DNA of 64,000 bases from NCBI RefSeq assembly GCF_046119375.1, contig NW_027362772.1:234546001-234610000 (forward strand), in the 5' to 3' direction. The translations under genes and the position numbers were made by a program. Origin of the DNA: Phyllobates terribilis. Its lineage: Eukaryota. The notes beneath the pieces were generated by a model, which saw nothing but the letters and a program-made list of their open reading frames with translations, did no database searches and was not told the origin of the DNA. Positions 60-57,249 of this stretch are shown in pieces; within the stretch, counting starts at the first letter, position 1, and each line of letters starts with the position of its first letter.

Positions 60-1700
60 GCCCATCATAAGTGATCCTTACCGCATCAGAAGATGCAGAC
101 TTGCAACTATCCCCATGCAAGTTCTAGTCCCAGGGCAGTGTTCAATTGTACCTCCCCCATTCCTTGCAATACAAGATCAAGTATGCAGCCTGCCACCCAC
201 CCACCCCCAGGCTGCAATACCATACTGCTTGCTTGCTTGAACTTGAAATTGGGCCTTTTAGGCATGTGGAGGCGGAATCTGGCCACCACGTCATGGCTGT
301 GTTGGCGGCCTGGAATCCATACTCAGTCCCCAGCCGCCCGGCGGCCGGGTGTCCATACTCGGTCCCCAGCCGCCCCGCGGACGGGTGTCCACACACGGTC
401 CCCAGCCGCCTGGGGGCAGCCAGGTGTACATAAACGGTCCCCAGCCGCCCCTATTTCTCCTTGGAACATCCCCCCACACACTTTTCTTAGCCGGCCTGCT
501 TTAGGCAGCATTGGACGAGCCCACCAAAGAACCAGACTCCTCCGGTGGGCCCTAACTTCTCCATCGGTGGAGTTGAGAGAGCCAAGGTGAGGAGCATGAT
601 GATGATGACAGAAGTTAGCATCTGCTATGTTTTCTTTTAATGCAAGTGTAAGTGTGCAGCCTGCCTCCCACTCACCCCCAGACTGCAATTACATACTGCT
701 AGCTTGCACTTGAAATGGGGCCTTTTAGTTTGGAGGAGGCCGAAGCTGGCCACTACCTCATGGCTGCTTCGGCAGCGAGGTATCCATACTCAGTCCCCAG
801 CCGCCCATATTTGTCCTGGTGTGCCTTATACATAAGATTAAGCGCGTATACCAAAACATTACCTGTGCCCTCCCCAGTGCATTTAGTGGGAAGGAAAGCC
901 TGTTCCGCTGTAGTGTGTGCATGCCAAACCCATGTTCATGGTACATGCGAAGATGCCTCCCACCTTGCACCTGCTGTTGCAGACTTGCAACTATCCCCAT
1001 TCAAGTCCTTGTCCCAGGGCAGTGTTCAATTGTACCTCTCCCATTCTTTGCAATGCAAGCGCAAGTATGCAGCCTGCCACCCACCCACCCCCAGGCTGCA
1101 ATACCATACTGCTTGCTTGCTTGCACTTTAAATTGGGCCTTTTAGGCATGTGGAGGCGGAATCTGGCCACCACGCCATGGCTGTGTCGGCGGCCTGGTAT
1201 CCATACTCAGTCCCCAGCTGCCTGGTGGCCGGGTGTCCCCGCTTGCTCCCCAGCCTCCAGGGGGTGGCCGGGTGTCCATACTCGGTCCCCAGCCACCCCT
1301 ATTTGTCTCGGTAACCTTTCCCACACTTTTCTTAGCCTGGCCTGCTTTAGGGCAGCATTGGCCGAGCCCACCGGACTATCAGACTCCTCCGGTGGGCCCT
1401 GGCTTCTCCATCAGGGGAGTTGAGAGTGCCAAGGTGAGGAGCATGATGAGGATGATAGAAGTTAGCATCTGCTTTGTTTTGTTGTAATGCAAGCGCATGT
1501 ATGTAGTAGCGGCTAGGCCTGAGGTGGTCAGCGTTTTGGCGCATATCCTACCTCCTCCGAGGATTGCTGGATGTTTTCCTGCTACTATCCAAGTTCTATG
1601 ACTCCCATTAAAACAAAGCTTCAGGTGATAAATGATGGATGAGGTAGTGGCAAAGGAGAAAGAGCAGGAGGAACAGGGACCATTCACATCAATATCAGGC
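60..1700 (+). pseudogene. Degenerate, internally reiterated hAT transposase fragment, antisense to the main ORF of copy A
   Basis: Translations such as SQGSVQLYLSHSLQCKRKYA, LLELEIGPFRHVEAE and PYSVPSR align with the transposase segments SQRSAQLSIPQSLERKRKYA, LLALEMLPFRLVETE and RYSVPSR. HILPPPRIAG near 1540 matches HILPTPRIAG. Confidence 0.75.
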
Positions 1701-1972
1701 CAGTCAACCAGATATGTCTTGTAGGATATGTTTCTGTAACAAAAGGAGCAGTTCGGCTACACACTTATAGGGCATACAGTGAGTGCAATGCCTACCAAAA
1801 ATTTCGAGCCACTCCAATGCCCCTTGGAAATGACATGGAGGTCAGAGGGCGTTAACTAAACCTTTTTTTCCATTTATAGCAACTGGGTCTCCCGTGCACT
1901 GTTGGCCTAAGCAGTGAATGGAAGGCTTTCCAAAAATTATGAGGAACTGCAATGCCCCTTACAAGAGCCATG

Positions 1973-2983
1973 TGTGGCACCCCAGGGGTCTGGTCACCAC
2001 ATTAATAGAGATATTACGTCGGAGAGCAAGTGGGAGGTTTCCTGGTCAGGATCCCTTAAACATGCAACATCCTCCTGCCCCAATCCTGGGAGGGGAGAAT
2101 TCTGCCCTTATAAACTGGATCTGGGGCGGGGTTGAGTGAGTCAGAGAGCAGTCAGAGTCAGAGTGAGAGCAAGGGAAAGTAATAGCAAGGAGCTCTGTAG
2201 GAGCTAGGAGCTAAAGACCAGGGGCTGGAAGCTGAGCAGAACTCGCCCTGGCAGAAGACAATAGGAACCGGACACAGGAGTCTGAAGCTGTGAGGACTTA
2301 TATATCCAGCAGCAGAAACCAGCCGGCAGGAGATTTCAGGTCCTCTGGCCATAGAAGCCCGGAGGCTCAGTCACAAGCAAGGGACCAGCACCGCCGTCGT
2401 GGAGCGGAGGCTAACAGAAGGCCTCAAGTCACCAGCCATACGGGTGAGCACTACACGGTACACTCAGGGACGTGGGCTACTTCTACCGGCTTACAGCAAG
2501 GTAGCCAGGAAGAGTGCAGACAGACGGGGAGGCCTACAACTCCACCTGGCCAGGGGAACTCCTGCTTGCTCAAAGACTGACCAGGCCTCTTATGCTAGCC
2601 AGTATTCCCGGGAGGGTCTACCTTATAATCATCAGTAAAGACCCTGAACTGCACTGCAAAGACTCTGAGTCATTCCTGCTGCGCTCGTGCACCGTCATCC
2701 ACACTCACTGCCCTGAGGCTATACTCCTCCTGAGGGGAGTTATCCCATTCTATGCTGCGCACACAACACCAGCCTCAGCGGTCTGCCTCGCAGAGGTGGT
2801 ACTCCCTGACCGCAATCCACGGGTGGCGCAGTCGGACAATTAACCTCAAAACCTAAGAAAGACTGCCACTGGTTTGACCAGCCTGAGCCACAGGACCGGG
2901 TCACCGCCACGGAGACTACAGACCCCAGAGACCCGGCACCGGGTATCCCACACACGTGTACACACGGCCCAGGGGGCGCGTCA
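1973..2983 (+). mobile_element. Solo-LTR-like element, probably Gypsy (copy 1)
   Basis: Runs TGTGGCACCCC...GGGGGCGCGTCA. 4-bp TSD CATG at 1969-1972 and 2984-2987 splits a satellite unit (CAAGAGCCATG|CAGTACAGC). Confidence 0.8.
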
Positions 2984-2987
2984 CATG

Positions 2988-5900
2988 AAGTACAGCATAT
3001 TACAAACATAAGTCCCATTATTGGGGAGTGGGTGTCCCATGGTATTTGCTTATGGTTTCCAAGCAAAAGCTGCCAAAAATTAGGACAGAGCAACTTGCAA
3101 TGCCCCTTACAAGAGCCATGCAGTACAGCATATTACAAACATAAGTCCCATTATTGGGGAGTGGGTGTCCCATGGTATTTGCTTATGCTTTCCCAGCAAA
3201 AGCTGCCAAAAATTAGGAAGGAGCAACTTGCCCCTTACAAGAGCCATGCACTACAGCATATTACAAACATAAGTCCCATTATTGCGTTGTGGGTGTCCCA
3301 TAGTATTTGCTTATGCTTTCCCAGCAAAAGCTGCCAAAAATTAGGACGGAGCAACTTGCAATGCCCCTTACAAGAGCCATGCAGTACAGCATATTACAAA
3401 CATAAGTCCCATTATTGGGGAGTGGGTGTCCCATAGTATTTGCTTATGCTTTCCCAGCAAAAGCTGCCGAAAATTAGGACGGAGCAACTTGCAATGCCCC
3501 TTACAAGAGCCATGCAGTACAGCATATTACAAACATAAGTCACATTATTTGGGAGTGGGTGTCCCATAGTATTTGCTTATGCTTTTCCAGCAAAAGCTGC
3601 CAAAAATTAGGACGGAGCAACTTGCAATGCCCCTTACAAGAGCCATGCAGTACAGCATATTACAAACATAAGTCCAATTATTGGGGAGTGGGTGTCCCAT
3701 AGTATTTGCTTATGCTTTCCCAGCAAAAGCTGCCAAAAATTAGGACGGAGCAACTTGCAATGCCCCTTACAAGAGCCATGCAGTACAGCATATTACAAAC
3801 ATAAGTCCCATTATTGGGAAGTGGGTGTCCCATAGTATTTGCTTATGCTTTTCCAGAAAAGCTGCCAAAAATTAGGATGGAGCAACTTGCAATGCCCCTT
3901 ACAAGAGCCATGCAGTACAGCATATTACAAGCATAAGTCCCATTATTGGGGAGTGGGTGTCTCATAGCATTTGCTTATGCTTTCCCAGCAAAAGCTGCCA
4001 AAAATTAGGACGGAGCAACTTGCAATGCCCCTTACAAGAGCCATGCAGTACAGCATATTACAAACATAAGTCCCATTATTGGAGAGTGGGTGTCCCATAG
4101 TATTTGCTTATGCTTACCCAGCAAAAGCTGCCAAAAATTAGGACGGAGCAACTTGCAATGCCCCTTACAAGAGCCATGCAGTACAGCATATTACAAACAT
4201 AAGTCCCATTATTGGGGAGTGGATGTCCCATAGTATTTGCTTATGCTTTCCAAGGAAAATCTACCAAAAATTAGGACGGAGCAACTTGCAATGCCCCTTA
4301 CAAGAGCCATGCAGTACAGCATATTACAAACATAAGTCCCATTATTGGGGAGTGGGTGTCCCATAGTATTTGCTTATGCTTTCCCAGCAAAAGCTGCCAA
4401 AAATTAGGGCGGAGCAACTTGCAATGCCCCTTACAAGAGCCATGCAGTACAGCATATTACAAACATAAGTCCCATTATTGGGGAGTGGGTGTCCCATAGT
4501 ATTTGCTTATGCTTTCCCAGCAAAAGCTGCCAAAAATTAGGACGGAGCAACTTGCAATGCCCCTTACAAGAGCCATGCAGTACAGCATATTACAAACATA
4601 AGTCCCATTATTGGGGAGTGGGTGTCCCATAGTATTTGCTTATGCTTTCCCAGCAAAAGCTGCCGAAAATTAGGACGGAGCAACTTGCAATGCCCCTTAC
4701 AAGAGCCATGCAGTACAGCATATTACAAACATAAGTCACATTATTTGGGAGTGGGTGTCCCATAGTATTTGCTTATGCTTTTCCAGCAAAAGCTGCCAAA
4801 AATTAGGACGGAGCAACTTGCAATGCCCCTTACAAGAGCCATGCAGTACAGCATATTACAAACATAAGTCCAATTATTGGGGAGTGGGTGTCCCATAGTA
4901 TTTGCTTATGCTTTCCCAGCAAAAGCTGCCAAAAATTAGGACGGAGCAACTTGCAATGCCCCTTACAAGAGCCATGCAGTACAGCATATTACAAACATAA
5001 GTCCCATTATTGGGAAGTGGGTGTCCCATAGTATTTGCTTATGCTTTTCCAGAAAAGCTGCCAAAAATTAGGATGGAGCAACTTGCAATGCCCCTTACAA
5101 GAGCCATGCAGTACAGCATATTACAAGCATAAGTCCCATTATTGGGGAGTGGGTGTCTCATAGTATTTGCTTATGCTTTCCCAGCAAAAGCTGCCAAAAA
5201 TTAGGACGGAGCAACTTGCAATGCCCCTTACAAGAGCCATGCAGTACAGCATATTACAAACATAAGTCCCATTATTGGGGAGTGGGTGTCCCATAGTATT
5301 TGCTTATGCTTACCCAGCAAAAGCTGCCAAAAATTAGGACGGAGCAACTTGCAATGCCCCTTACAAGAGCCATGCAGTACAGCATATTACAAACATAAGT
5401 CCCATTATTGGGGAGTGGATGTCCCATAGTATTTGCTTATGCTTTCCAAGGAAAATCTACCAAAAATTAGGACGGAGCAACTTGCAATGCCCCTTACAAG
5501 AGCCATGCAGTACAGCATATTACAAACATAAGTCCCATTATTGGGGAGTGGGTGTCCCATAGTATTTGCTTATGCTTTCCCAGCAAAAGCTGCCAAAAAT
5601 TAGGGCGGAGCAACTTGCAATGCCCCTTACAAGAGCCATGCAGTACAGCATATTACAAACATAAGTCCCATTATTGGGGAGTGGGTGTCCCATAGTATTT
5701 GCTTATGCTTTCCCAGCAAAAGCTGCCAAAAATTAGGACGGAGCAACTTGCAATGCCCCTTACAAGAGCCATGCAGTACAGCATATTACAAACATAAGTC
5801 CCATTATTGGGGAGTGGGTATCCCATAGTATTTGCTTATGCTTTCCCAGCAAAAGCTGCCAAAAATTAGGACGGAGCAACTTGCAATGCCCCTTACAAGT

Positions 5901-6950
5901 GCCATGCAGTACAGCTTATTACAAACATAAGTCCCATTATTGGGCAGTGGGTGTCCCATAGTATTTGCTTATGCTTTCCCAGCAAAAGCTGCCAATAATT
6001 AGGACGGAGCAACTTGCAATGCCCCTTACAAGAGCCATGCAGTACAGCATATTACAAACATAAGTCCCATTATTGGGGAGTGGGTGTCCCATAGTATTTG
6101 CTTATGCTTTCCCAGCAAAAGCTGCCAAAAATTAGGACGGAGCAACTTGCAATGCCCCTTACAAGAGCCATGCAGTACAGCATATTACAAACATTAGTCC
6201 CATTATTGGGGAGTGGATGTCCCATAGTATTTGCTTATGCTTTCCAAGCAAAATCTGCCAAAAATTAGGACGGAGCGACTTGCAATGCCCCTTACAAGAG
6301 CCATGCAGTACAGCATATTACAAACATAAGTCCCATTATTGGGGAGTGGGTGTCCCATAGTATTTGCTTATGCTTTCCCAGCAAAAACTGCCAAAAATTA
6401 GGACGGAGCAACTTGCAATGTCCCTTACAAGAGCCATGCAGTACAGCATATTACAAACATAAGTCCCATTATTGGGAAGTGGCTGTCCCATAGTATTTGC
6501 TTATGCTTTCCCAGCAAAAGCTGCCAAAAATTAGGACGGAGCAACTTGCAATGCCCCTTACAAGAGCCATGCAGTACAGCATATTACAAACTTAAGTCCC
6601 ATTATTGGGGAGTGGGTGTCCCATAGTATTTGCTTATGCTTTCCCAGCAAAAGCTGCAAAAAATTAGGATGGAGCAACTTGCAATGCCCCTTACAAGAGC
6701 CATGCAGTACAGCATATTACAAACATAAGTCAAATTATTGGGGAGTGGGTGTCCCATAGTATTTGCTTATGCTTTCCAAGCAAAAGCTGCCAAAAATTAG
6801 GACGGAGCAACTTGCAATGCCCCTTACAAGAGCCATGCAGTACAGCATATTACAAACATAAGTCCCATTATTGGGGAGTGGGTGTCCCATAGTATTTGTT
6901 TATGCCTTGCAAGCAAAAGCTGCCAAAAATAAGGACGGAGGAACTTGCAA
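2988..6950. repeat. 133-bp tandem satellite, about 30 copies, inside hAT copy A
   Basis: Unit GTCCCATTATTGGGGAGTGGGTGTCCCATAGTATTTGC...CATATTACAAACATAA. Period 133 (for example 3406 to 3539). Confidence 0.97.
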
Positions 6951-7098
6951 TGCTGGCACCCTGGTGGTATAGTGGTGGTGGAGGCTGAGGATAAGGAGAA
7001 GAAGATTAAACAGCCGAAACGAGGAAGCGTATACCAATGTGTGGGTGTGAAGCGGTGCACGTGAATACACCTCCCGAAATAACACAGTGGATTTGACT

Positions 7099-10000
7099 TT
7101 ATGTTACTCTGCTGTCATTTGGTGGTGATGAGAAGTCTGGCCCAATCCAGCCCTTGTTCATTTTAATAAGGGTCAGCTTGTCAGCATTGTCAGTTGACAG
7201 GCGAGTGCGCTTATCAGTTATAATTCCCCCAGCGGCAGTAAAAACACGTTCCGATAACACGCTAGCGGCAGGGCAGGCCAGGACCTCCAAGGCGTACAGA
7301 GCGAGTTCATTCCAAGTGTCCAGCTTGGATACCCAATAATTAAAAGGCACAGAGGAATCACGGAGGATGCTGGTACAATCGGCAAGGTACTCCCTTACCA
7401 TCTTTTGAAACTTTCCACTCCTTGTGAGAGTACCCCGCGCCTCAGGGCCTGTAAGCTGGGCGGGACTCAGAAAACTGTCCCAGAACGTTGACAGTGTTCC
7501 CCTGCCTCTGCTGGATTGGAGTTGCATCTCTCTCGCCTGTACGCCTTGGTTGGGCAACGAACTGTGACCTCTACCGCTAGCGTGTTCAGATGGGAATTTT
7601 TTAAGAGTTCTGCAGCAAGGGCCTTCTGGTATTGCCCCATTTTTGTAGACCTCTCCACCTCAGGAATAAGAGAGTGAAAGTTCTCCTTGTAGCGGGGGTC
7701 TACAAGTGTCACCAACCAGTAATGACTGTCACCCAACATTTTGACAACGCGAGGGTCACGGTTAAGGCAACGTAACATAAAGTCAGCCATGCGTGCCAGA
7801 CTGGTAAAGGGCAAGATTTCCGTGTCCTCACCAAGATGACAACTGACCATGCTCTCCTCCTCCTCCTCCTCTTCCTCCTCCCCCCTGTCCTCAGGCCACC
7901 CACGCTGAACCGACGGTATGACACTTGTACAGGTACTACCATCTACAATGCATGATAGCAGCTCCTGTTCTTCCTCCTCCTCCTCCTCCTCCTCCTCTCC
8001 CTCATTGTCCCCCAATGCACGTTGGGATGAGATGAGGCTGGGCTGTGTGTAATCGCCCGCTACGGCTTCTGATCCATCTCATCATACTCTGGCTGCAATG
8101 CCTCCTCTTTAATTCTCTGCAGAGAGCGTTGCAAAAGACAGACAAGTGGGATGCTGACACTAATGATGGCGTCATCGCCACTCACCATCTTGGTGGCCTC
8201 CTCAAAGTTTGTCAGGATGGTACATATGTCAGACATCCAGGTCCACTCCTGAGGTTTTATGTGTGGAGTCTGACCTGAATATCGACGGCCTTGTTGCAGC
8301 TGGTACTCCACAACTTCTCTCTTCTGCTCACAAATCCTTTGCAACATGTGGAGGGTAGAGTTCCAACGTGTGTGATCTCACCTCGCCTCAGAGCCGCCAC
8401 TAGGTTACGGCCATTGTCACACACGACCATGCCGGGATGTAGGTTCAGCGGTCTCAGCCACAGATCTGCCTGCTCTTTCACAGCGGTCCACAACTCACAA
8501 GCAGTGTGAGGTTTATCACCTAAGCTTATGAATTTCAGCACAGCATGTTGCCGCTTGGCGGAGGCAGTACTGCAATGCTTCCAGCTTGTAACTGATGTGG
8601 TGATATCTGAGATGGAGGCTGAACATGAGGAGGAGGAGGAGGAGGGGGATGCGCAGGAGCTGTACACTGAAGGGGTAACTCTGACTGACATAGGGCCCGC
8701 AATCCTCGGTGTGGGGAGGATGTGTTCCGTCCCAAGGACCGACTGGGTCCCGGCTTCCACTATGTTTACCCAGTGTGCCGTCTGAGAGATGTACCATCCC
8801 TGGCCACAAGCACTTGTCCACGTGTCCGTTGTCAGGTGGACTCTCCCAGTACCTGCGTTGTTGAGGGCACGGCAGATGTTTTGGGACACGTGCTTGTGTA
8901 GTGCGGGGATGGCACACCGGGCAAAATAGTGTCGGCTGGGGACCGAGTACCGAGGGACGGCCACCGCCATAAGATTGCGGAAGGATTCCGTCTCCACCAG
9001 CCTAAAAGGCAGCATTTCCAATGCAAGCAGTCGTGAAATGTGCGAATTTAGGATTGTGGCCTGTGGGGCGTTAGCTGCGAATTTCCGCTTTCGTTCAAAG
9101 GTCTGGGATATGGACAATTGAACGCTGCGGTGGGATGTGGACGTGGATGCTGATGCTGTTTCTTGAGAAACTGCCATAACAAGTGAAGACTGAGAGGAGG
9201 GGGCATCTTTACATGCAGTATGGACAGGGGATTGCCTTGCACACACAACAGGGGGTTCTATTGCACGCACAACAGTGGAAGAAGCAGTGGTGACACCCGC
9301 TGACACTGGTCGTGGACCCTGGGTTTCGCCCCACAAAGTCGGGTGCTTTGCTGCCATGTGCCTGATCATGCTGGTGGTGGTCAAGCTGGTAGTTTTGTCA
9401 ACCCTGCTGATGCTGGCATGGCAGGTGGAACATATGGCCTTTTTTGGGTTATCAGCAGAGTCTTTAAAAAAATTCCAGACTCTGGAAGACCTACCGCTTG
9501 TACTGGCAACGTCCCTCGTGTTGGTGTTACGGGGAACGGTTGCCTGCCTTCTGTCTGCGGCCACCACACTGCTTCTTCCTGCCTGTTGGGGTACTCTGCC
9601 TCCCTCCCCCTGTATGCTGCTGGCCTCACTCTGCATGTCCCCCTTCCACGTTGGGTTAGTTACTAGATCATCCACCACCTCCTCCTCTTCCACTTGCGCA
9701 CCACGATGCTCCTCCTCACTTCCTGGCAATTGTGTCTCGTCATCGTCCACCTCTTGTGACAGATTGCCAACGTCGACTTCCTGTGGCTGTGGCTGTTCAA
9801 ATATTTGGGCATCGCAACATGGGATCTCCTCTTCCACCACTTCAAGCGTATCAGGCGAGGGGCCCAAATATGGAAATGGACCAGTGAACAGCTCTTCAGA
9901 GTGTCCAAGTGTGGGATCACTTGCTGTCTGACGACACTCGGCATGGTGGGAGGAAGGAGCATCAGGGTGAGGAGGAGTATGCGATCGAGACTCACGGCTA

Positions 10001-11822: not shown

Positions 11823-14800
11823 ATGGAGAGGCATATATAAGACACACCCATTACTAACCCCATAGTCAAAGTTAAAAAAAAAACACAAACACCCAGAATA
11901 AAGTCCTTTAATTGAAATAAAGACACAATTCTTTATTGTTCTAAATTAAACCATACTTACCATCACGCCCATTCCAGCTGAAGCCAACGATCTCCTGCAA
12001 TAAAAGTAAAATAATAAAGCAACATCATCCTTACCTTTCCATGGTTCCCACGACAGCTTCAGCTCTGCTACATTCACATGACAGGCTGGATCGCAGCAGA
12101 ACGCTGCCATCCAGCTTGCCATGCCGCAGACACTGAGAAGCGCAGGCATGCTTGCGCTCCTCAGTGTCTCGCTGTGACGGCATCCAGATGAGCCGAGTTC
12201 ATGTCCAAGAAACTCAGCTCACCTCTTGCACGTCACTGACAGCGTGGGAGAATTCTCACGCTGAAGCGCTGAGTGCAGTAGAATTTTCCCACGCTGTCAG
12301 TGACGTGCATGAGGTGAGCTGAGTTCATTGGACATGAACTCGGCTCATCTGGATGCCGTCACAGCGAGACACTGAGGAGCGCAAGCATGCCAGCGCTTCT
12401 CAGTTTCTGCGGCATGGCAAGCTGGATGGCAGCGTTCTGCTGCTATCCAGTCTGTCATGTGAATGTAGCAGAGCTGAAGCTGTCGTGGGAACCATGGAAA
12501 GGTAAGGATGATGTTGCTTTATTATTTTACTTTTATTGCAGGAGATCGTTGGCTTCAGCTGGAATGGGCGTGATGGTAAGTATGGTTTAATTTAGAACAA
12601 TAAAGAATTGTGTCTTCATTTCAATTAAAGGACTCTATTCTGGGTGTTGTGTTTTTTTAAATACTTTACTAGAAATTCATGGCGATCATGTCTAATATTG
12701 GCGTGACCCCATGAATTTTCGGGCTTAGGGCCAGCTGATAATGCCAAGCTGGCCCTAACCCCTTCATTACCCAGTGAGCCACCGCACCAGGGCCCTGGAT
12801 GAGTTGGGTAAAGCGCCAGAAGATGGCTCTTCTATGAACGCGCCATTTTCCGGGGTGGCTGCGGACTCCAATTTGCAGCGGGGGGGTCCCATAAGGCTTG
12901 GGCCTCCCTGCGCTGCGGATTCCAGTCCCAGGCTTCCTAGTTGTACCTGGTTGGACACAAAAATAGGGCGAAGCCCCACGTATTTTTTTTTTTAATTATT
13001 TCATGAAATTCATGAAATAATTAAGAAAAAAAGGGCTTCCCTATATTGCTGTGTCCGGCCAGGTACAAATAGGCAGCTGATGGTTGGGGGCAGCCCGATC
13101 TTGCCTGCTGTACCTGGCTGGACACAAATATAGTGCGAAGCCCAACGTCAATTTTTTTTAAATTATTTAATGAAATAATTAAAAAAAAAGGGCTTCCCTA
13201 TATTGTTGTGTCCGGCCAGGTACAAATAGGCAGCTGGTGGTTGGGGGCAGCCCGTTCCTGCCTACTGTACCTGGCTGGACACAAATATAGTGCGAAGCCC
13301 CACTTCAATTTTTTTTAAATTATTTCATGAAATAATAATAAAAAAAAAGGGCTTCCCTATATTGTTGTGTCCGGCCAGGTACAAATTGGCAGCTGGTGGT
13401 TGGGGGCAGCCTGTTCCTGCCTGCTGTACCTGACTGGACACAAATATAGTGCGAAGCCCCACGTCAATTTTTTTAAATTCTTTCATGAATTTCCTGAAAT
13501 AATTTTAAAAAAATTGACGTGGGGCTTCGCACTATATTTGTGTCCAGCCAGGTACAGCAGGCAGGAACGGGCTGCCCCCAACCACCTGCTGCCTATTTGT
13601 ACCTGGCCGGACACAACAATATAGGGAAGCCCTTTTTTTCTTAATTATTTCATAAATTTCATGAAATAATTAAAAAAAAATACGTGGGGCTTCGCCCTAT
13701 TTTTGTGTCCAGCCAGGTACAACTAGGCAGCTGGGGGCTGGAATCTGCAGCGCAGGGAGGCCCAAGCTTTCTGGGCCCCACCCGCTGCAAATTGCAGTCC
13801 GCAGCCACCCCGGAAAATGGCGCGTTCATAGAAGCGCCATCTTCTGGCGCTGTATCCAGCTCATCCAGGGCCCTGGTGCGGTGGCTCACTGGGTAATAAA
13901 GGCGTTAGGGCCAGTTGGTATTATCAGCTGGCCCTAAGCCCGAAATTCATGGGGTCACGCCAATATTAGACATGACCGCCATGAATTTCTAGTAAAGTAT
14001 TTAAAAAAAACACAACACCCAGAATAAAGTCCTTTAATTGAAATAAACACACAATTCTTTATTGTTCTAAATTAAACCATACTTACCATCACGCCCATTC
14101 CAGTTGAAGCCAACGATCTCCTGCAATAAAAGTAAAATAATAAAGCAACATCATCCTTACCTTTCCATGGTTCCCACGACAGCTTCAGCTCTGCTACATT
14201 CACATGACAGGCTGGATCGCAGCAGAAAGCTGCCATCCAGCTTGCCATCCCGCAGACACTGAGAAGCGCAGGCATGCTTGCGCTCCTCAGTGTCTCGCTG
14301 TGACGGCATCCAGATGAGCCGAGTTCATGTCCAATGAACTCGGCTCACCTCATGCACGTCACTGACAGCGTGGGAAAATTCTCCTGCACTCAGCGCTTCA
14401 GCGTGAGAATTCTCCCATGCTGTCAGTGACGTACATGAGGTGAGCTGAGTTCATTGGACATGAGCTCACCTCATGTACGTCACTGACAGCGTGGGAAAAT
14501 TCTCACGCTGAAGAGCTGAATGCAGGAGAATTTTCCCACGCTGTCAGTGACGTACTTGAGGTGAGCTGAGTTCATTGGACATGAACTCACCTCATGCACG
14601 TCACTTACAGCGTGGGAAAATTCTCACGCTGAAGCGCTGAGTGCAGGAGAATTTTCCCACGCTGTCAGTGACGTGCATGAGGTGAGCCAAGTTCATTGGA
14701 CATAACCTCGGCTCATCTGGATGCCGTCACAGCCTGACACTGAGGAGCGCAAGCATGCCTGCGCTTCTCAGTGTCTGCGGATGACAGGCTGGATGGCAGC

Positions 14801-15080
14801 TTTCTTCTGCGGTCCAGCCTGTCATCTCGATGTAGCAAAGCTGGAGCTGTCCTGGGAACCATGGAAAGGTAAGGATGATGTTGCTTTATTATTTTTCTTT
14901 TATTGCAGGAGATCGTTGGCTTCAGCTGGAATGGGCGTGATGGTAAGTATGGTTTAATTTAGAACAATAAAGAATTGTGTGTTTATTTCAATTAAAGAAC
15001 TTTATTCTGGGTGTTTGTGTTTTTTTTTAACTTTGACTATGGGGTTAGTAATGGGGGTGTCTTATAGACGCCTCTCCATT
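11823..15080. repeat. Nested inverted repeat X-X'-Y-Z3-Z'-Y'-X-X'
   Basis: Hairpin 11880-12655 (arms about 385 bp); Y 12656-13000 versus Y' 13640-14005; second hairpin 14010-15030; outer arms 11823-11880 versus 15020-15080. Confidence 0.9.
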
Positions 15081-15544
15081 ACTAACCTGGGCTTGATGTC
15101 AGCTGGCATTATAAGCTGACATCAACCGCAGCCCTATTACCCCACTGCCACCGCTACAGGGCAGTGGGATGAGCGAGGCTAAGTGCCAGAATTGGCGCAT
15201 CCTATTGATGCGCCATTTCTGGGGCGGCTGACGGCTGGTGTTTCTAGCCTGGGAGGGGGCCAATATTCATGGCACCCTTCCTGGGCTATTAATATCAGCC
15301 CCCAGCTGTCTGCCTAGCCTTTGCTAGCTATTAAAATAGGGGGGACCCCACGTCATTTTTTTGGGGGGGTCCCCCATTTTAATAGCTAGTAAAGGCTAGG
15401 TATTCAGCTGAGGGCTGATATTAGTAGCCTGGGAAGCTCCGTGGGTATTACCCCCTTCCCAGGCTTCAAACATCTGCCCCAGCCGTCTGCTTAACCTCCG
15501 CTAGAGACTAAAATTACGGGGAACCCCACGCCAATTTTTTTTTT

Positions 15545-28647: not shown

Positions 28648-30457
28648 GGAGAATGTCCACTACTATAGAGAATGCCCCCATCGATTTAAAAGGTGGAAAT
28701 GAGATTTTTTGTAAGTACATTGTGTTGGGATTCTTGCCTGTGAGCAGTGCTATTGATGTGCCCCCTGGGGCCGTGGGGTACTCGGTAGCCGGGCCGGTCC
28801 TGTATTGGGGTAGTCAAGGTGGTAGTGACTCGGTCTGTGGCCCCGGGTGGTCAAATACGAAAAGAGAGAAGGGGAATAAAGTTTTGGGGGTAATGTTCGT
28901 GACGCCACCCGTGGTATGCGGCTATGTGGGGCCGCCGCTGCGGTGCAGGTCCACTGGGGCTGATGGTGACGCAGCAGATTTGGTTCAGCCCCAGGGAAGT
29001 GTAGATGATTTTATGAGCTAGATGTTGTTGGTGCGGTGTAGTGCAGAGCAGGTGATGGCGCACCAATTATTCAAGGACACAGTGGGGTGCAGTCTTCAGG
29101 TTTTACTCACAGTTGGTCAATTCTCCAGGTTACAGTTACCGGTGTGTAATCGCCCACGTCGTCCTGTGTCCTCCGGGGTAGTGACCCAGCAAACTCTCAG
29201 GTAGCACATGGACGGGACTCCATTCTATGTACCTTTCCAGGTCGCCTCACTGCGCTAGCTCTCCCTCCTGCCCTGCGCCTCACACCCAGTGTCCCAAGCC
29301 AGTGGCCGCGGGCCTTGTCAGGCGACGTCATCTTTGTCTCCTGGGTCCTCTATGGCCACCTTTTCGGCGATTAGGTGTGGAGTGTGGCTGCAGCACCTGA
29401 AATGCTGCAGCCTCCGGTTGGCTAGCTGAGACTTAAATTACTCCACTAGGCTGGAGCCGGTCCCCTACTGCGGCCTGATCCCTCCACGTCAGCGTGAATT
29501 CGGGCGCACGGGTGGCCTCTGCACTCGCCATGCCCCTGGGATCCCCTCTGTCTCTCTGTAGCCCTCCTCACTGCTTCCATCTTCATTCCACTCTTTCTTT
29601 CTCCTGGGCCTCCATGACTGGGCTCGACTCCTGTCTCTCTCCTTCCTTGCTCTCCTGAGCAGAACTGACCTCCTGCTCCAAACAATGGAACAGGAGTCTG
29701 GCCTCTTCTAGAACTTTCTACCCTCCTTATATACCCTTCTGTCTGTGCTCCACTGATCTTCTTCCTCCAACCACCTCTTCTACCTAGTTCCACCCTTCAG
29801 CTAGACTGTGCTCTCCCTTAGGAGCAATCTCGTCCTTCCCTGCTGATGTGGAGTGTATTGCATGTGGGTGTGTGGGTCCCGGGTAGTACTCCCTCCTTAC
29901 CTGAGAGTGGGGTACCACACCTCTGGGTGAGATGCAGCATCTCTGTGGCAACTGGACCCGCAGGGGCTCAACACTATTGTTGACCGCTCACCAGGAATCA
30001 CGTGATCCCCGGCTGCAGCCAGCTCTGTCATCCGCTGATGTCATTTCAAGTTCCGGCTGCAGCCAGGGTGTGATCCAGTGACGCGCTCCCTGCTGATTGA
30101 TGGGCTGTGGGTGGGGATTCACTGCACATCACAGCTCAGTATCCAGCGCATACTTTCCCAATGAGTGCAGAGGAGAGGGAAAGCACGTGGTGGATGTTGG
30201 GATGTGCGGTGAAAGCTGGCCCACAGCCCATCAATCAGGGGGGAGCGCGCCACTGGGTCATACCTGGCTGCAGCCACAACTTGACGTGACATCAGCGGAT
30301 GTCAGAGCCGGTTGCAGCTGGGGTCACGTGATGCCTGGTGAGCAGTCAGCAATAGCGCCACTCACAGGCAAGAATCACAACACAAGGTACTTACAAAAAA
30401 TCTTATTTCCACCTTTTAAATCGATGGGGGCATTCTCTATAGTGGTGGACAACCTCT
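28648..30457. mobile_element. TTAA-flanked MITE (T2/Kolobok-like), palindromic, interrupted by an LTR
   Basis: TTAA at 28644-28647 and 30458-30461. TIRs ...GTCCACTACTATAGAGAATGCCCCCATCGATTTAAAAGGTGG and its reverse complement. Internal palindrome at 29978-30400. Confidence 0.85.
28754..29973 (-). mobile_element. Solo-LTR-like element (copy 2)
   Basis: Minus strand runs TGTTGAGCCCC...GGGGGCACATCA. TSD CTAT at 28750-28753 and 29974-29977. Homologous to 44769-46034. Confidence 0.82.
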
Positions 30458-31879
30458 TTAAGTCTTTGCTTTAAGGTTATGATGGGTGTCTCTATCTTCC
30501 CATTACAGGGCAACACAGGTCGATGTGTTGCCCTGTGATCATTGTACCCAATGCTACACACCGTGGACTGTGTAAGGGAGCTCTCCCAGCTACCACACCT
30601 TACAGACGTGCACCAACTTGGCTGATCCTATATTTCTTCACCAAGACCTTCAGGTCTAGCTAATACTGAGACTTGCTTAAAATTCACTTTCAGTAAGTGC
30701 CCCAACTTGCCTGATATGACGAAAAACTGCCACCACTTTTACTTGAATGCTGAAAACGTGCTACCTTGCACATCTTCTCTTCATACACACCCAGTTATGA
30801 GCAGAACTGACCAATGGTATCCTTTTCTTTTCTGTAGCTGACTAACTATAAAGCAGGAATTAACTCCTAGAGCCCATTTACTTCTTCCCAAACTATGGGC
30901 TGGCCTTACAGTTAACCCTGTCCAACCCTGAAAACTATAGCCCACATAATTGTAAAACACAGAAAACCACAAGTGGCATTAACTATACAGTCAGGGGTTT
31001 TCAGAGAATGTGTTCGGACATCTTCTCCATCTTTACAGACCTGTTTCCTCCAGAGGGCTGCCAATATGTAAAGCTGAGGGATGTATGCTGAGTTTGCCCT
31101 TAACTAAAATAAAATGCACCAAACTTCCTTGCACCTTGTGGTACCCTATGGTTTTTAGACGACTGTGGCTCTTTCTTTTCTACCCATTGAAGAGGTCATA
31201 ACTCAAACTGGACTTCATTTATAGAATAACTTATCCACACAGATGCCCAATTTTGTTACACAATCTTTGTCCCTGTGAGGTATTTAGGCCACAATACCAC
31301 TAGCAAGCTGAAGTCAACCTATTGCCCTATCCACTGATTAGACCAGGAAGGTCGAACAAGTTGGACGTTCTGAGTAGTGTTGAGCCACCCCCGTAGTGTT
31401 CGAGTTCGGTTCGCTTCGTCGAACACCCTTGTGTTCGCCGAACTGTTCGTCGAACTGTTCGTCGAACACCTTCGAACACCGTTAAAACCAATGGCAGGCA
31501 AACAAAAACACATAGAAACACATAGAAAAAACCTTCAAAGGTGTCCAAAAGCTGATAAACTGCTCAGAAGACATAACTAACACATGGAAAAGTGACAAGT
31601 ACATATAGTCATGCGAAAAGAAAAGAGGTGGAGGAGTAAAAGGAGGGGGAGACACAGATATAGGCATGTCATGCCCTTCTAAAATCCAAAAAGTGAGAAG
31701 CCGACACGGCCAATCCGTTCCTGCCCGTGCCACCTCCGTGTCGCCGGATTTGTGCCAGAGCCGCGGTGGACCCTGACGGCCAGCCCCCCTCTCCCAATAC
31801 TGCTGCCTGTCCGCTGGTGGGTCGAGCGAGCCCCCTGTGGTGGAGGCAGGTCTAAGCTTTTTAATTTAAATTGTCTCTC

Positions 31880-32144
31880 TAATTTGAATGAATACACTTT
31901 AAATCCTTTTACAAGGATCTATTGGAGGGCAAGTCTCATGCCAGCAGCCGCATAATTCCAGCTCCAGTAGCGTCCACTAAAGCTGCTGCAGTTAAAAAGC
32001 TTTTATAAGGATCGAGCTCGGCGGTCCACCGCAAGTCGTCCTACCGCCAATCCCAGCCCCTATGCCTTGGGGTGCCTGCTGATGCTCTTCACCGAGTATC
32101 CCGGGGTCCCGAAGCATTTCCTTTGAAAAAATTAAGTGTCCAAA
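31880..32144 (+). pseudogene. Decayed 18S rRNA fragment
   Basis: CACTTTAAATCCTTT...ATTGGAGGGCAAGTCT..TGCCAGCAGCCGC..TAATTCCAGCTCCA...GCTGCAGTTAAAAAGCT...TTTGAAAAAATT matches the conserved central 18S region, with many substitutions. Confidence 0.9.
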
Positions 32145-32258
32145 CTACAGGTGGTGTAGCTTGCTTAACAGCTGGGATAATCCGCTGACTAGCAGACACT
32201 GCTACTAGGCACAAAGTATTTCCTGGGCTAGATGCAGTTAAAAATTTGTAATTAGATA

Positions 32259-34077
32259 CTCTCGTTGAATGCTGAGAAAGCATTCCATAGAGTCTCCTGG
32301 CATGCCATATATTATTCTCTTAAAAGCTTGGGGTAGGGGTCTAGGGGACCCTTTTATAGCCAAAATCACGGCCCTGTATCGCAATACGTCACCTAGGCTG
32401 AAGATAAATGGAACTGTAGCACCCCGAGGGCTCGGTTGCTACAGAGGTATTGCACCTCACCCAGAGGTGTGATATCTCACTCTCAGGTAAGGATGGAGTG
32501 TGGATCAGGACCCCAACACCTGCATGCATTACACCACATTGCTGTGGCGCAGGGCGACCAATATGCCTCTGAGATGGGCACGACAGTCCCTGTCCCTGGC
32601 TGGAGTGGGGGGAGGGAACACTGAGGAAGGGGAACCCTGTAGTGCAGGAGCAGGGAGGAAGCAGTTCCTGGGTACATTGAGAAGGAAGTATAAAAGGTGG
32701 GCACCATCTTAGTTCAGTGCAGAGAAGTCTGAGCAGAAGTGACAGGGAGCAGGGGCTGTGCATGAGCTCTGCTCCGGAGGCGGGCCTAGTAACAGAGGCC
32801 CAGGCCTGGAAGAGGGAGAAGGAAGGAAGAGGAGCGAAGAAGGATCCAGGAACGAGGAACAAAGGGATCCCAGGGGTGCGGACGGGCAAGTCGCCACCGC
32901 ACGCCCGAATCCACCTGCGTGGAGGGGTCAGGCCAAAGGGGGAGACCGGTGCCCGAAACTAGTGGAGGCGAGAAACGACCCTCAGCTAGAAACCGGAGGC
33001 TGTGACATTTTATGTGGCGCAGCCCCTCGCTACACCCGCTAGGAAGGCACCACATAGGGTCAGGGAAACTGGCGCCAAGTTTACCAAGAGGAGGCCCAAG
33101 GCAGTCGGACAGAAGCATTGGTAAGAAAGGCCAGACAAAGTACACACAAAGGGGGTCCTGTGAAGCGCTCCAAAGTTATCTGGGAGTTGTCTGAGCCCCT
33201 CACCTGGTAAGCACAGTACGACATGGGCAGCCGTTACCTGCAGAAGTGGTCTGGATAATAAAAACCGTGAGTAAAGGCCCTGGACTGCATCACTGACTCC
33301 GTGTCGTTACTGCTGCTGCCCTGCACCATCACCCCCATCCTACGCATACACTGCCCTGAGGCTATACTCCTCCCGTGGGGAGTTATGCTACGCTCTGCTG
33401 CACCCACAACACCAGCCTCAGCGGTCTGTCCTGCAGCGGCGGTTCACTCTGACCGCAATCCACGGGTGGCGTAGTCGGACATTTAAACATCAAAACCACA
33501 TAAATAGTTCCGCCACTGGTTTGACCGCCCTGAGCCACGGAACCGGGTCGCCGCCACGGAGACTACAACCACCAGCATCCACCAAAAAGGGTCCGGCTCC
33601 GGGTGTCCCAAGGCCCAGGGGGCGCGTCAGAACATTTTCATCACCTTTCATAATCACCAATGGGACAAGGCAGGGATGTCCTCTGTCCCCTCTCTTATAC
33701 ATCCTAGTGACAGAGCACCTGCTCTCATCAATTCGCCATAACCCCAATATTAGGTGGATTGAGGTGGGAGGCACCGAGTACAAGTGCTCTCTATTTGCTG
33801 ATGATGTCCTAGTATATATCACTCAATCACATATATCCATCCCTGCTGTTATGGCTGAAATAGATCACTTTGTTACATGGTCAAATTTTAAAATCAATCC
33901 AGCAAAGTCTGAGGCCCTCGATGTCTCCCTCCCAAAATCCATACAGGATTCCATCCAGTCCAACTTTCCCTTGCCTGGCCCTCACAGGGTATCAAATACT
34001 TAGGAATTCCTATTCATAGAGACCTCTCCCGTCTATGTTATCTTAATTTTGGGCCCTTTATTGAACAACTCCATACA
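32259..34077 (+). pseudogene. L1-clade LINE reverse transcriptase fragment, split by an LTR
   Basis: LSLNAEKAFHRVSW...LKINGT before the LTR; FSSPFIITNGTRQGCPLSPLLY...LFADD...NFKINPAKSE after it. Confidence 0.88.
32415..33629 (+). mobile_element. Solo-LTR-like element (copy 3)
   Basis: Runs TGTAGCACCCC...GGGGGCGCGTCA. TSD GAAC at 32411-32414 and 33630-33633. Confidence 0.88.
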
Positions 34078-34150
34078 GACCACGGTTGGCAAGTTAGAAC
34101 TGTAAGATTCACTACGTGAACCACTGGTGTTTTGTTGAAAAGCACATGTA

Positions 34151-35505
34151 CACTGTGTTCCAAATTATTATGCAAAAAGTGTTTAGGAGTGATAAGGGAA
34201 GAATTTGTTTGTTTGTCAGTTAAACTCATTGATGGTGATGTGTGTCAGGGCTCTTTATATCACTGTAAGCAATTGTAGACACCTGTGCTAATTAGTTTGG
34301 CAGGTGTGTCCAATGAAAGGCAAGACTACTTAAGAAGACTGTCCCACATTATTAAGCAGCCTACATTTTCTGCCAAAATGGGAAAGAAAAAGGATGTGTC
34401 GGCTGCTGAGAAGCAACAAACTGTGGAGTGTTTAGGTCAAGGCATGACTAAAATCAACATTTTGCGATGATCAGGATGAAGTGTCTTGGCAATCAAGAAG
34501 TATGTAGCTGATTCACAGTACACACGTGTGCGTGCTGATAAGGGCAAATTGAGGACTCTTTCCTACAGGCAATTACGTCAGGTTAAAAGAGCAGCGGCAA
34601 AAAAGCCTTGTCATAGCAGCAGACAAGTTTTTGAAGCTGCTGGTGCCTCCAACGTCCCCCAAACAACAAGATGCAGGGTCCTTCAGAGGTTTGCAGCTGT
34701 GCGTACGCCATCCTGTCGGCCTCCTCTATCCACTTCACACAAGCAGAAACGGCTCCAGTGGGCCAAACATTACATGAAGACTAATTTCAAAACTGTTTTG
34801 TTCACGGATGAGTGCCGTGCAACGCTCGATAGTCCAGATGGATGGAGTGGAGGATGGCTGGTTGATGGACACCCCACGCAAACACGGCTACAGCGCCAAC
34901 AAGGAGGAGGTGGAGTAATGTTTTGGGCTGGAATCATGGGGAGAGAGATTGTCGGCCCCTTTAGGATCCCTGAAGGGGTAAAGATGAACTCCATAATGTA
35001 TGTGGAGTTTCTCAAACAGCACTTCCTGCCATGGTTCAAGAAGAAGAACCGTGTATTCCACAGCAAGATCATTTTTATGCATGATAATGCCCCATCTCAT
35101 GCTGCACATAACACATCTGCATCTCTGGCTGATATGGGCATAAAAGGGGACAAACTTATGCTGTGACCCCCATGCTCCCCTGACCTCTACCCCATTCAGA
35201 ACCTCTGGAGCATCATCAAAAGGAGTGTCTATGATGGCGGGAGGCAGTTCACATCTAAGCAACAGCTCTGGGAGGGTATTCTGTCGTCATGCAAAACAAT
35301 TGAAGCAGAAACAATCCAAAACCTGACAAATTCAATGGACAAGAGAGTTCAGAAGCTCCTTTCGAACAAGGGGTCCTATGTGCAAATGTAACATCACCTA
35401 GAATAAATTTTTGAGTTGAAAACTGTTTGATTTCAGTTTCTAATAACCTGCTAATGCTTATAATTTCAAAAATGACCATTTTTTTGGTCTTTATTAAAAT
35501 GAAAA
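34151..35505 (+). mobile_element. Tc1-related DD37E (TRT-type) transposon, 3' TIR lost
   Basis: TA followed by CACTGTGTTCCAAATTATTATGCA TIR. ORF 34486-35166 (FTDECR...FMHDNAPSH) continues past a TGA to PPCSPDLYPIQNLW. 37 residues separate D from the E position, which is mutated to Q. Confidence 0.85.
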
Positions 35506-40815: not shown

Positions 40816-40817
40816 TA

Positions 40818-43925: not shown

Positions 43926-44649
43926 GAATGATGCTATGCCCAAAAGATTTTACTTCACTAGGTGCAGTAAAAAAATTGGTATTCTATACACAGGTGGTGT
44001 AGCTTGCAACACAGATAGGCTACTCCACTGACTAGGCCAAAAAGGATTAGCTTTGCTAGATTTAGCCAAATGCTGTGAAAAAAACTTGCACAGCACTGGC
44101 ACAGACCTGCCTGGCAAAAACTGATAGGAACTGATGTAACTTAGTCCTGAAAAGGACTGCAATTACAATTAGTCTTTACTCCCAACCTATCTATTTAAGA
44201 GCACAGACCTGTCTGATAAAAGTCGTAGGAAATACTGTAACCTAGTCCTTAAATGGACTGCAATCAAAACTATTCCCTACTCCCAAGCTATCTGTAGATT
44301 TGTGCGAAAATTGGCTTTAAATTAACAAGGTATAACACACACAGCAACAGCGGTGCCGTCTAACACGCAGCTGCAGCAGTGAGAAAATGGTGGCGACGGG
44401 GAAAATGGCTGGGTCTTATAGGGCAAGGACATGTGACATACACAGCCAATGACACATGGCCTTGCTTGTGTGAAAAAAAGCAGTTCGCTCCGTGTGTGCG
44501 CTGCTGATAGGCTGACAGATTGCACCTCCCCACTGTAAATGCGGGAAAGAGAAAAAAAAATGGAGATCTTCATTATTCCTGCAGAGATCCATCCCCTGCC
44601 CCTCCCCCCGCCCCGCTGTACACTCAAACTGCGTATTAACATTAATTTT

Positions 44650-44768: not shown

Positions 44769-46034
44769 TGTGGCGTCCCTGATGGTCCAGTTGCCACAGA
44801 GGTACTGCATCTCACCCAGAGGTGTTGTACCCCACTCTCAGGTAAGGAGGGAGTACTACCTGGGACCCACACACCCACATGCAATACACTCCACTTCAGT
44901 AAGTAAGGGCGAGATTGCTCCTAAGGGAGAGCACAGTCCCTGGTCCCTAGCTGGAAGGTAGAACTAGAAAGAGGAGGTGGGTGGGGGAAGAAGTTCAGGG
45001 GAGCACCGACAGGAAGAATATAAGAAGAAGGGGAACCATCTAGAAGCGTGAGTTGTGAGTCAGTTGTGAGGAGAGAGAGTTGGGAACAGGAGCTCAGGAG
45101 GCGCTCTGCTCAGGAGGAGTAGAGAAAGGAGCAGGGCCCAGTGAGAGAGGCCCAGGAGAAGGAAAGAGAGAAGAGAGGAGCAGTGAGGAGGGCTCCAGGA
45201 GGAACAGAGGGGATACCAGGGGCACGGTGAGTGTGAATGTCACCCGTGCGCCCGAATCTACGCTGAAGTAGAGCGGTCAGGCCACAGAGTGAGAACCGGC
45301 CCCTAAACTAGTGGAGAACAACCAGGCTCAGCTAGACAACTGGAGGGTGCTGCATTTTCAAGGTGCTGCAGCCAAGAGCCACAATTACATTGCCGAAAAG
45401 GTGGCGGCATAGGGTCCAGGGGATTGCATGTCGCCCGACAATGCCCAAGGCCACTGGCTTGGGACACTGATTGTGAGGCGCAGGGCAGGAGGGTGAGAGC
45501 CAGGGCAGTGAGACTACCGGAAAGATACATAGAACGGGGTCCCGTTAAGTGCTCCTGAGGTACCTGAGAGATTGCTAGATCCCTACTCCGGAGGACACAG
45601 GACGACGTGGGAGGTTACACACTGGTAACTGTAACCTGAAGTCTTGAACAACTGTGAGTAAAACCTGAAGACTGCACCCCACAGTGTCCTTGAATAATTT
45701 CTGCGTCATCACCAGTCCTGCACTACACAGCACCAGCAACATCTACCTCATGAAATCATCACTACACTGCCCTGGAGCTAAGCTCTACCTGTGGAGAGCT
45801 GAACCAACTCTGCTGCGTCACCATCAGCTCCAGAGGATCTGCACTGCAGCAGCGGCTCCATATAGCCGCATACCACAGGTGGCGTCACGAACATTATCTC
45901 TAAAAACTTTATTCCCCTTTTATTTATCCTTTAATTGACCGCCCTGGGTCATGGACCGGGTCACGGCCACCGTGACATCCCCCAGCACTGACTGGCCCGG
46001 CTACCGAGAACCCCACGGCCCAGGTGGAGCGTCA
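44769..46034 (+). mobile_element. Solo-LTR-like element (copy 4)
   Basis: Runs TGTGGCGTCCC...GGTGGAGCGTCA. TSD CATG at 44765-44768 and 46035-46038. Confidence 0.85.
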
Positions 46035-55933: not shown

Positions 55934-57249
55934 TGACGCGCCCCCTGGGCCTGTGTTGTGCAGGGGAACCCGGAACCGGGCCTATTGTAGAATGCTGGGG
56001 GTTGTAGTCTCCGTGTGGCGGTGACCCGGTCCGTGCCCAGGGTGGTCAAACCAGTGGCAGTCTTAATGTATAGCAAATGTCCGACTACGCCACCCGTGGA
56101 TTGCGGTCAGTGGGGACCGCCGCTGCGCTGCCGACCGCTGAGGCTGATGTTGTTTGCGCAGCCGAGTATGGGATAACTCCCCACGGGAGAAGTATTGCCT
56201 CAGGGCAGCTAATGTAGATGATGATGGGAGTGATGGTGTGAGCGTCCCAGTGCTAATGGTGCTGGTGCAGCGAGGAACCACAGAGACGTGCGGTTGCAGT
56301 TTTCAATGCTTTACTCACAGTTGTTGTTCATGTCAATGCTGCAGGCGATGACTGCCCGAGCCGTGCAGCGTCCACCAGGCAAGGGACTCGGTCAACTCCC
56401 AGGTAATTCCAGAGCGTGGCACAGGGCTCCCTTCTCTACCTTTCTCTGGCCGTCCCCACCAGTGACCCACCTTTGTCCAGCTTCCTCAGGCCTTCTGTTA
56501 GCGAAACCTCTCCCGGTTTCCCTGACCCTATGCGGTATGCCTTTCTGGTGGATGTAGTGAGGGGTCGCACCAAGATGTGGTAACAACCTCCGGTCTTTGG
56601 CTGAGGAATCTGTTGCCTCCACCAATTTGGGTTCCGGTACCCTGTTCTGCCAACCCTTCACCCTGTATCTCCTCTGGGCATATGGGGTTCCTTCTTTACT
56701 CGCATCTCTGGGCCTTTCTCTGTGTTCCTTGCTTCCTTTCTCCTCTGTTCCAGTTCCTTTCTTACTTTCCTTTCCGCTCCTTCTCCTCTCTCTTTCTGCT
56801 GTTTCTGGCCTCCACTCCAGGCCTGCCTCTGGAGCTGGGCCCAGACTGAGCCACAGCTCCCTGTCAGCCCTCTCTGGCTGAACTCCTCTCTGAACTGAAC
56901 TGACGGACTGTCCTAAGATGGTGCCTACCTTTTATACCTCCTTCTAACACCCGAGCCCAGGTGACTAGCAACCAATGGGCTCCTACCTATGCCCAGAGAC
57001 CCACCCCTATCTGCTCCTACACCACTGGGTATTCCACCCCCTCCCCACTCCAGCCAGGGACAGATGCTGTCGTGCCTGCACTTCTATCTTGTGGGAGCAC
57101 CGCTGAGCTGTCCCTCGGAAATGGGGTGTGTGTGGTGCATGCAGCTACTGAGTCCTGGTCCACACTCCATCCTTACCCGGGAGTGGAATATCACACCTCT
57201 GGTTTGAGGTGCAATACCCCTGTAGCAGCCGAGCCCTCGGGGTGCTACA
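55934..57249 (-). mobile_element. Solo-LTR-like element (copy 5)
   Basis: Minus strand runs TGTAGCACCCCGAGGG...GGGGGCGCGTCA. TSD CATG at 55930-55933 and 57250-57253. Its 5' end nearly matches copy 3. Confidence 0.88.

Follow-up and report, generated by a model that had tools for sequence, protein, structure and literature searches.

A repeated tRNA-Ser complement in the predicted U5 of a frog Ty3/Gypsy family, and its candidate role in docking the primer tRNA

Five solo LTRs in the window

The window is a stretch of 64,000 nucleotides from the genome of Phyllobates terribilis (contig NW_027362772.1, positions 234,546,001 to 234,610,000, forward strand). It contains five elements, all with TG...CA ends and a 4-bp target site duplication (TSD), and each carries a motif complementary to the 3' end of a tRNA-Ser, here called the internal site, together with a second motif complementary to the tRNA 5' end (the tRNA-5' site). 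Their positions are as follows.

1973..2983, plus strand: LTR copy 1, solo LTR of the Ser-AGA/TGA type, TSD CATG; a passenger in an amplified repeat, adjoining a 133-bp tandem array
2634..2639, plus strand: AGTAAA of copy 1, a predicted poly(A) signal by which the internal site is presumptively placed in U5
2729..2735, plus strand: 5' strand of a 7-bp stem in copy 1; the partner 3' strand (2817-2823) abuts the internal site, and six of seven pairs form
2824..2835, plus strand: internal site of copy 1, complement of the tRNA-Ser(AGA/TGA) 3' end with one mismatch
2906..2919, plus strand: tRNA-5' site of copy 1, complementary to nt 1-11 of tRNA-Ser(AGA/TGA) with a 3-nt bulge
32415..33629, plus strand: LTR copy 2, solo LTR of the AGA type, TSD GAAC; a passenger within a repeat 3.8 kb or more in length
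33467-33478 and 33553-33566, plus strand: internal site and tRNA-5' site of copy 2
55934..57249, minus strand: LTR copy 3, solo LTR of the AGA type, TSD CATG
56081-56092 and 56004-56019, minus strand: internal site and tRNA-5' site of copy 3
44769..46034, plus strand: LTR copy 4, solo LTR of the CGA type, TSD CATG; internal site at 45880-45893
45965..45976, plus strand: tRNA-5' site of copy 4, an exact 12-nt complement of nt 1-12 of tRNA-Ser(CGA), with the tRNA gene L086 as reference
28754..29973, minus strand: LTR copy 5, solo LTR of the CGA type, older, TSD ATAG
28894-28907 and 28813-28823, minus strand: internal site and (decayed) tRNA-5' site of copy 5

The five tRNA-Ser-like motifs had been located by an initial annotation of the window, and their coordinates and strands are all borne out. 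The distance from site to LTR 3' end, given there as 153-162 nt, measures 154-163 nt when the first T is counted (160, 163, 159, 155 and 154 nt in copies 1 to 5). When the 3' 300 nt of the five LTRs are aligned the mean column identity is 74%, and copy 5 ends ACATCA, not in the GCGTCA given earlier for the conserved tail.

Copies 1 and 2 have been amplified inside larger repeats, the carriers spanning positions 340-8372 and 31374-35228 of the window, each with more than 1,100 preliminary candidate matches. For copy 1, all 20 near-copies that were fetched have both flanks in common with it; for copy 2, 19 of 20 do, the exception (L035) being rearranged. As passengers, these two LTRs have near-copies that are not independent insertions, and for the same reason no full elements were found among the near-copies fetched. 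The mismatch to the tRNA in the internal site of copy 1, at position 6, is common to all 20 fetched near-copies. The 133-bp tandem array in the carrier of copy 1 occupies 2984-6953 with 30 copies; elsewhere the window has two 110-bp tandem arrays (39777-40817 and 42531-43928) and long inverted repeats (11876-15362).

The parent family

The same LTR ends, together with the internal site, occur in both LTRs of full elements, and the five window elements are thus ordinary solo LTRs of a Ty3/Gypsy superfamily. In the full elements a canonical 18-nt tRNA-Ser primer-binding site (PBS) follows the LTR on its 3' side, and four of 20 near-copies of copy 4 continue past the LTR end into a 4-nt spacer and a PBS-like 18-mer. 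Genome-wide pattern searches returned 43,701 exact junctions of an LTR end with a Ser(AGA/TGA) PBS and 2,156 with a Ser(CGA) PBS, for about 46,000 exact junctions in the superfamily; reversed-pattern controls gave no matches in any genome-wide search, which rules out chance.

Two-LTR elements of up to 8.1 kb were found in eighteen 10-kb loci. In L061-L064 the LTR pairs are 99.1-99.8% identical and are accompanied by a 4-bp TSD and a purine tract, and Pfam profiles identify in the open reading frames of L061 and L064 a gag with a CCHC knuckle, protease, reverse transcriptase, RNase H and integrase, in Gypsy order. The gag is PNMA-like, with a score below the Pfam cut-off, and the closest proteins to these reading frames are frog and fish polyproteins labelled by their sources as Gypsy-type. 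Direct TG...CA repeats with a TSD, the order gag-PR-RT-RNaseH-integrase, and a PBS with a purine tract, all features of Ty3/Gypsy, are therefore present together. An endogenous retrovirus was considered and rejected, as the RNase H and integrase profiles are Gypsy-type and the homologues Gypsy-labelled; no long reading frame that might represent env lies 3' of integrase in L061 or L064. A single-LTR, TRIM-like non-autonomous element, one of the possibilities raised in the initial annotation, is also rejected: the same ends precede spacer, PBS and gag-pol in full elements, and two-LTR elements with a canonical PBS number tens of thousands. The check that had been suggested on full-length proviruses thus shows a PBS 3' of the LTR end and the internal site in both LTRs.

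Several structural variants accompany the full elements. L062, L063 and L065 are young two-LTR elements of about 4-5 kb, internally deleted, with LTRs 99.6-99.8% identical; these are non-autonomous derivatives in which all three tRNA sites are kept. The spacer from LTR end to PBS is subfamily-specific at 3-9 nt, while the purine tract is just 2 nt away from the 3' LTR. In two CGA-type elements (L073, L078) the 3' half of the PBS is partly repeated about 15 nt downstream of the PBS.

In 84 of 93 rows the hexamer AGTAAA precedes the internal site by 180-240 nt, and the site is accordingly assigned to predicted U5, an assignment that uses this hexamer in place of mapped RNA ends.

The internal site follows the primer isoacceptor

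The motifs match tRNA-Ser genes of the genome itself (CGA, L086; AGA, L096, L109 and L141; TGA, L142), so that their identification as complements of the tRNA-Ser 3' end agrees with the species' own genes, with the one mismatch in copy 1. That two subfamilies track different isoacceptors, as claimed earlier, holds genome-wide. Concordant AGA/AGA combinations of internal site and PBS were found 5,698 times (12-nt internal pattern) and CGA/CGA combinations 1,385 times (9-nt pattern), against no crossed case of an AGA internal site with a CGA PBS (10-nt pattern) and three of the reverse (9-nt pattern). The three crossed loci comprise two recombinant junctions and one microdeletion. Among 101 fetched junction rows 63 are AGA/AGA, 35 CGA/CGA and 3 crossed. 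This count follows removal of 24 rows: 14 downstream PBSs of duplicated elements, L118 (in which the site is present and which failed the context filter), L170, and 8 others representing six loci without the internal site, of which L138 resembles a member with a disrupted LTR. The 101 rows are partly non-independent, including overlapping loci or both LTRs of one element, and 5 to 8 such rows were omitted from the U5 tree and from the conservation, tRNA-5' site and co-folding analyses.

In the U5 tree (96 rows, motifs masked) the type of the internal site changes twice, both times together with the PBS; a sign test on this co-switching gives p=0.5, two pairs being too few for significance. The two switches could represent a single origin if there was recombination between clades. 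A gag tree covers 31 of the 101 rows, from which the second AGA clade and the divergent families are absent.

The extent of the match is sharply defined. Agreement with the tRNA is 0.91-1.0 at positions 1-11 and 0.25 at position 12 of the AGA sites (n=56), and 0.76-0.97 at positions 1-13 of the CGA sites (n=34). The 27 positions 3' of the match (19-45) are variable, with a commonest-letter share of 0.27-0.74, so that the comparison with neighbouring U5 proposed in the initial annotation favours the site. The internal site is therefore the complement of tRNA nt 66-76, extending to about nt 64 in CGA families, and position 11 of the match coincides with the end of the acceptor 3' strand as read from the tRNA genes. 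T1 of the site is invariant in AGA rows even though the base with which it might pair in the stem is T in 37 of 52.

Such a site is not required for serine priming in general, since other Ser-primed Gypsy families of the same genome (L085, L098, L120, L124 and L136) have no internal site. Relatives in metagenome contigs are distant (80 loci, 40-57% identity); none of those with a readable LTR and PBS has an internal copy, the longest prefix match to the PBS being 6 nt, and a search of viral contigs found no relatives.

An upstream stem and a third motif

The seven bases 5' of the internal site are paired to a stretch some 90 nt further upstream, and this 7-bp stem occurs in three compensatory versions, in 34, 31 and 8 rows. 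The compensatory changes identify CCACAGG as a stem strand. What had been taken for a canonical-looking LTR boundary, CCACA-GG, is accordingly the 3' strand of a conserved stem and does not have to mark a former LTR terminus.

The tRNA-5' site, complementary to tRNA-Ser nt 1-11/12, is located some 70-95 nt upstream of the LTR end; it is an addition of the present analysis and was absent from the initial annotation. It also switches with the isoacceptor, mostly by G.U-compatible changes; 24 of 34 CGA rows, and 5 of 6 from the second AGA clade, have either the exact complement or one altered solely in G.U-compatible ways. A bulge of 2-5 nt interrupts the site in the main AGA clade, where the pairing is energetically weak. 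Across AGA rows the cognate tRNA beats the non-cognate in 38 of 56, and the pairing energy is reached by 8.3 of 50 shuffles on average; 10 of 24 C>T changes at the site are also explicable as CpG decay. L148 and L156 have a CGA-type tRNA-5' site with three added bases and look like an intermediate towards the bulged site of the main AGA clade. A tRNA-5'-like site is found in L120 as well, 32 nt before the PBS, although the internal site is absent there. Single-sequence folding gives no support for folding of the third motif onto the internal site or the PBS.

Co-folding was carried out with unmodified tRNA and a U5 without PBS on 39 of 90 rows, and is partly circular in that the sites are defined by complementarity and tRNA modifications are ignored. 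Within these limits the cognate 3' end occupies the internal site with a mean probability of 0.86 (AGA) or 0.72 (CGA), against 0.12 and 0.09 for the non-cognate. Both tRNA ends are bound in 18 of 39 cognate pairs and 1 of 39 non-cognate pairs, and in the main AGA clade the tRNA 5' end is bound with a mean probability of 0.31.

Footprints of reverse transcription

In 11 of 12 loci retrieved with the tRNA-gene pattern the canonical PBS continues into further tRNA sequence, and read-through of 25-50 nt is present in 48 of 101 rows, the loci being picked by that same pattern; in L120 almost the entire tRNA is included. This read-through 3' of the canonical PBS shows that priming occurs there and that the PBS is copied from the tRNA. 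Elements with read-through (L079-L139, for example L084, L097 and L120) are commoner among the fetched loci than genuine tRNA genes, and some (L082, L120) can mislead tRNA finders. In L053, L087, L088 and L154 the PBS or read-through is followed directly by LTR ends in inverted orientation or by nested copies, which may be products of fold-back or of template switching.

A second class of footprint is an in-register duplication with the order internal site, tail, LTR end, 18-nt PBS, tail repeated (for example L084). There are 151 pattern matches, and 13 of 20 fetched loci proved true. The duplicated tail restarts at or within one base of internal-site position 19 if both tails are of one variant; in L152/153, L162 and L168 the two tails come from different variants. 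Some elements have the duplication, and hence an extra full PBS upstream, in both LTRs, which indicates that these were primed at the last PBS. We infer that plus-strand strong-stop DNA at times lands on the complement of the internal site.

Other departures are rare. The internal context followed by a full PBS has three matches genome-wide; in L251 the internal site has been cleanly converted to the full 18 nt, and L252 and L253 are the only two tail-less 5' LTRs found in the genome. Among the 161 U5 matches that reach the site (of 164, a sample biased to full ends) none has an LTR ending there; four flagged rows contain the site on inspection, and three matches are short and partial.

A candidate docking platform

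The internal site and the tRNA-5' site, which lies some 75 nt inside the LTR end, are best regarded as a candidate U5 docking platform that would pair both strands of the tRNA acceptor stem, a reading to which a probability of roughly 0.55 can be attached. Of the explanations first offered for the motif, the most probable is a dual or bipartite tRNA site. The acceptor stem of the tRNA would first exchange onto the internal and tRNA-5' sites of the genomic RNA with the T-arm intact, each acceptor strand being replaced by one of the sites in a nested geometry. The 7-bp stem directly upstream would block extension of a tRNA held at the internal site, and the tRNA 3' end would then be passed to the longer 18-nt PBS, a presumed hand-off during which the tRNA 5' end could remain anchored. 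A broader and more tentative proposal, possible but short of probable, is that a vertebrate Gypsy lineage has evolved a putative tRNA-loading device, in which strand exchange with an acceptor-stem mimic in U5, serving as a dock where no priming occurs, opens the primer before its transfer to the PBS, the three sites having changed jointly in two or more natural switches of primer.

The internal site probably arose by duplication of a PBS-tail unit and has probably been maintained by selection. LTR extension after a PBS shift, also suggested in the initial annotation, survives in this sense as a plausible origin, with in-register duplications visible, and rare mis-aimed plus-strand transfers may rewrite the internal site from the tRNA. 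It is unlikely that origin is the whole account, the site being a functionless relic in which an old PBS, enclosed after PBS-tail duplication, is kept matched by templated rewriting. The true in-register duplications, some in both LTRs, and the clean 18-nt conversion in L251 are what such a history would leave. Rewriting is nonetheless rare (at most 151 matches against 43,701 junctions, and one clean conversion) and yields 18 nt, yet the match stops sharply at 11-13 nt across divergent subfamilies, and the co-switching tRNA-5' site is left unexplained.

Similarly unlikely is an intramolecular role, in which the internal site binds no tRNA and instead pairs with the tRNA-5' site, keeping it off the PBS until the tRNA comes. 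The two sites are complementary by construction and co-switching of positions 5-10 would follow, and a neighbouring motif in elements of the main AGA clade is able to fold onto the internal site, as seen in 2 of 7 structures inspected. Pairing between the sites nevertheless has a probability near zero by single-sequence folding (79 rows, group means 0.00-0.03), and positions 1-4 and 11-13 match the tRNA although they cannot pair with the 5' site.

It is doubtful that a second tRNA on the internal site bridges two genomic RNAs to serve dimerization or packaging, a role suggested in Ty3 and in Drosophila gypsy. There is precedent for a tRNA bridge in the available portions of the work on gypsy (PMC1635307) and Ty3 (PMC5371799), and the tails of different variants in three duplicated elements (L152/153, L162 and L168) fit two co-packaged RNAs. 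In gypsy and Ty3, as those portions describe them, the sites pair different parts of one tRNA, whereas here the internal site and PBS compete for one strand. Quite improbable are a decoy or target for 3' tRNA fragments, consistent with silencing of LTR elements by 3'-tRFs through the PBS (PMC7472051, as far as available), and an action at the DNA stage of plus-strand transfer, for which the occasional capture of plus-strand 3' ends would speak: a site of 11-13 nt is a weaker target than the adjoining PBS, the captures are rare and look accidental, and neither accounts for the tRNA-5' site. A role for the internal site in alternative priming or as an integrase end, which would give short LTRs or single-LTR elements, can be set aside as highly improbable, for the two tail-less 5' LTRs stand against only three genome-wide occurrences of internal context with a full PBS, no LTR ending at the site among 161 U5 matches, and priming at the last PBS where an extra upstream PBS is carried in both LTRs.

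Comparison with known systems

The tens of thousands of genomic copies are a record of how three tRNA-matching sites, whose boundaries are exact, have co-evolved in nature, and the preserved accidents of reverse transcription, both read-through and mis-aimed plus-strand transfer, reveal how an LTR can grow. There is also a practical consequence for PBS-based LTR finders, which in this Ty3/Gypsy family can mis-call the LTR end by about 160 nt. How a folded tRNA is melted onto the PBS, and which contacts outside it matter, is still debated even for HIV, according to the accessible part of PMC3185550.

A literature search, with Repbase Reports, Dfam, supplements and most subscription journals outside its scope, found no published description of this arrangement, and primer binding sites are not treated in PMC6278860. 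Neither a repeat of the acceptor 3' complement in U5 nor template pairing with tRNA nt 1-12 appears in the available portions of PMC1635307, PMC5371799, PMC3592414 and PMC3185550. The nearest relatives are the frog and fish Ty3/Gypsy elements (Metaviridae) with PNMA-like gag, which are alike in PR-RT-RH-INT order, no env seen, 4-bp TSD, TG...CA LTRs, tRNA PBS and purine tract; an internal PBS copy or tRNA-5' site is unreported for them in the literature found, and with Repbase and Dfam outside the comparison the family may already be catalogued.

Drosophila gypsy also has more than one template site for its primer tRNA: two 11-nt sites serve one tRNA, and only the site 3' of the 5' LTR primes (PMC1635307, as far as available). 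Its second site is located close to the 3' end of the RNA and base-pairs with the anticodon and T stems (same portions), whereas that of the present family falls within predicted U5, is a further copy of the acceptor 3' complement and is joined by a site for nt 1-12. The bipartite PBS of gypsy and Ty3, divided between 5' and 3' parts, engages a different tRNA region with each; here the internal site repeats PBS positions 1-11/13, and only the third motif pairs another region (nt 1-12). In the Ty3 bipartite PBS and the Ty1 boxes the primer is held by more than one template segment, as here, with a short PBS and extra segments that pair the T and D arms; in Ty3 the tRNA 5' ends pair with each other (available portions of PMC5371799 for Ty3 and PMC3592414 for Ty1). 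The present family differs in having a full 18-nt PBS copied from the tRNA and extra sites that replace the acceptor stem. In HIV (PAS and A-rich loop) and RSV (U5-T loop contact), U5 segments pair with the primer tRNA and must change with it in laboratory primer switches, their targets being the T arm or anticodon (PMC3185550, in its accessible part); the present family offers by comparison a natural co-switch, recorded in the genome, at both acceptor strands.
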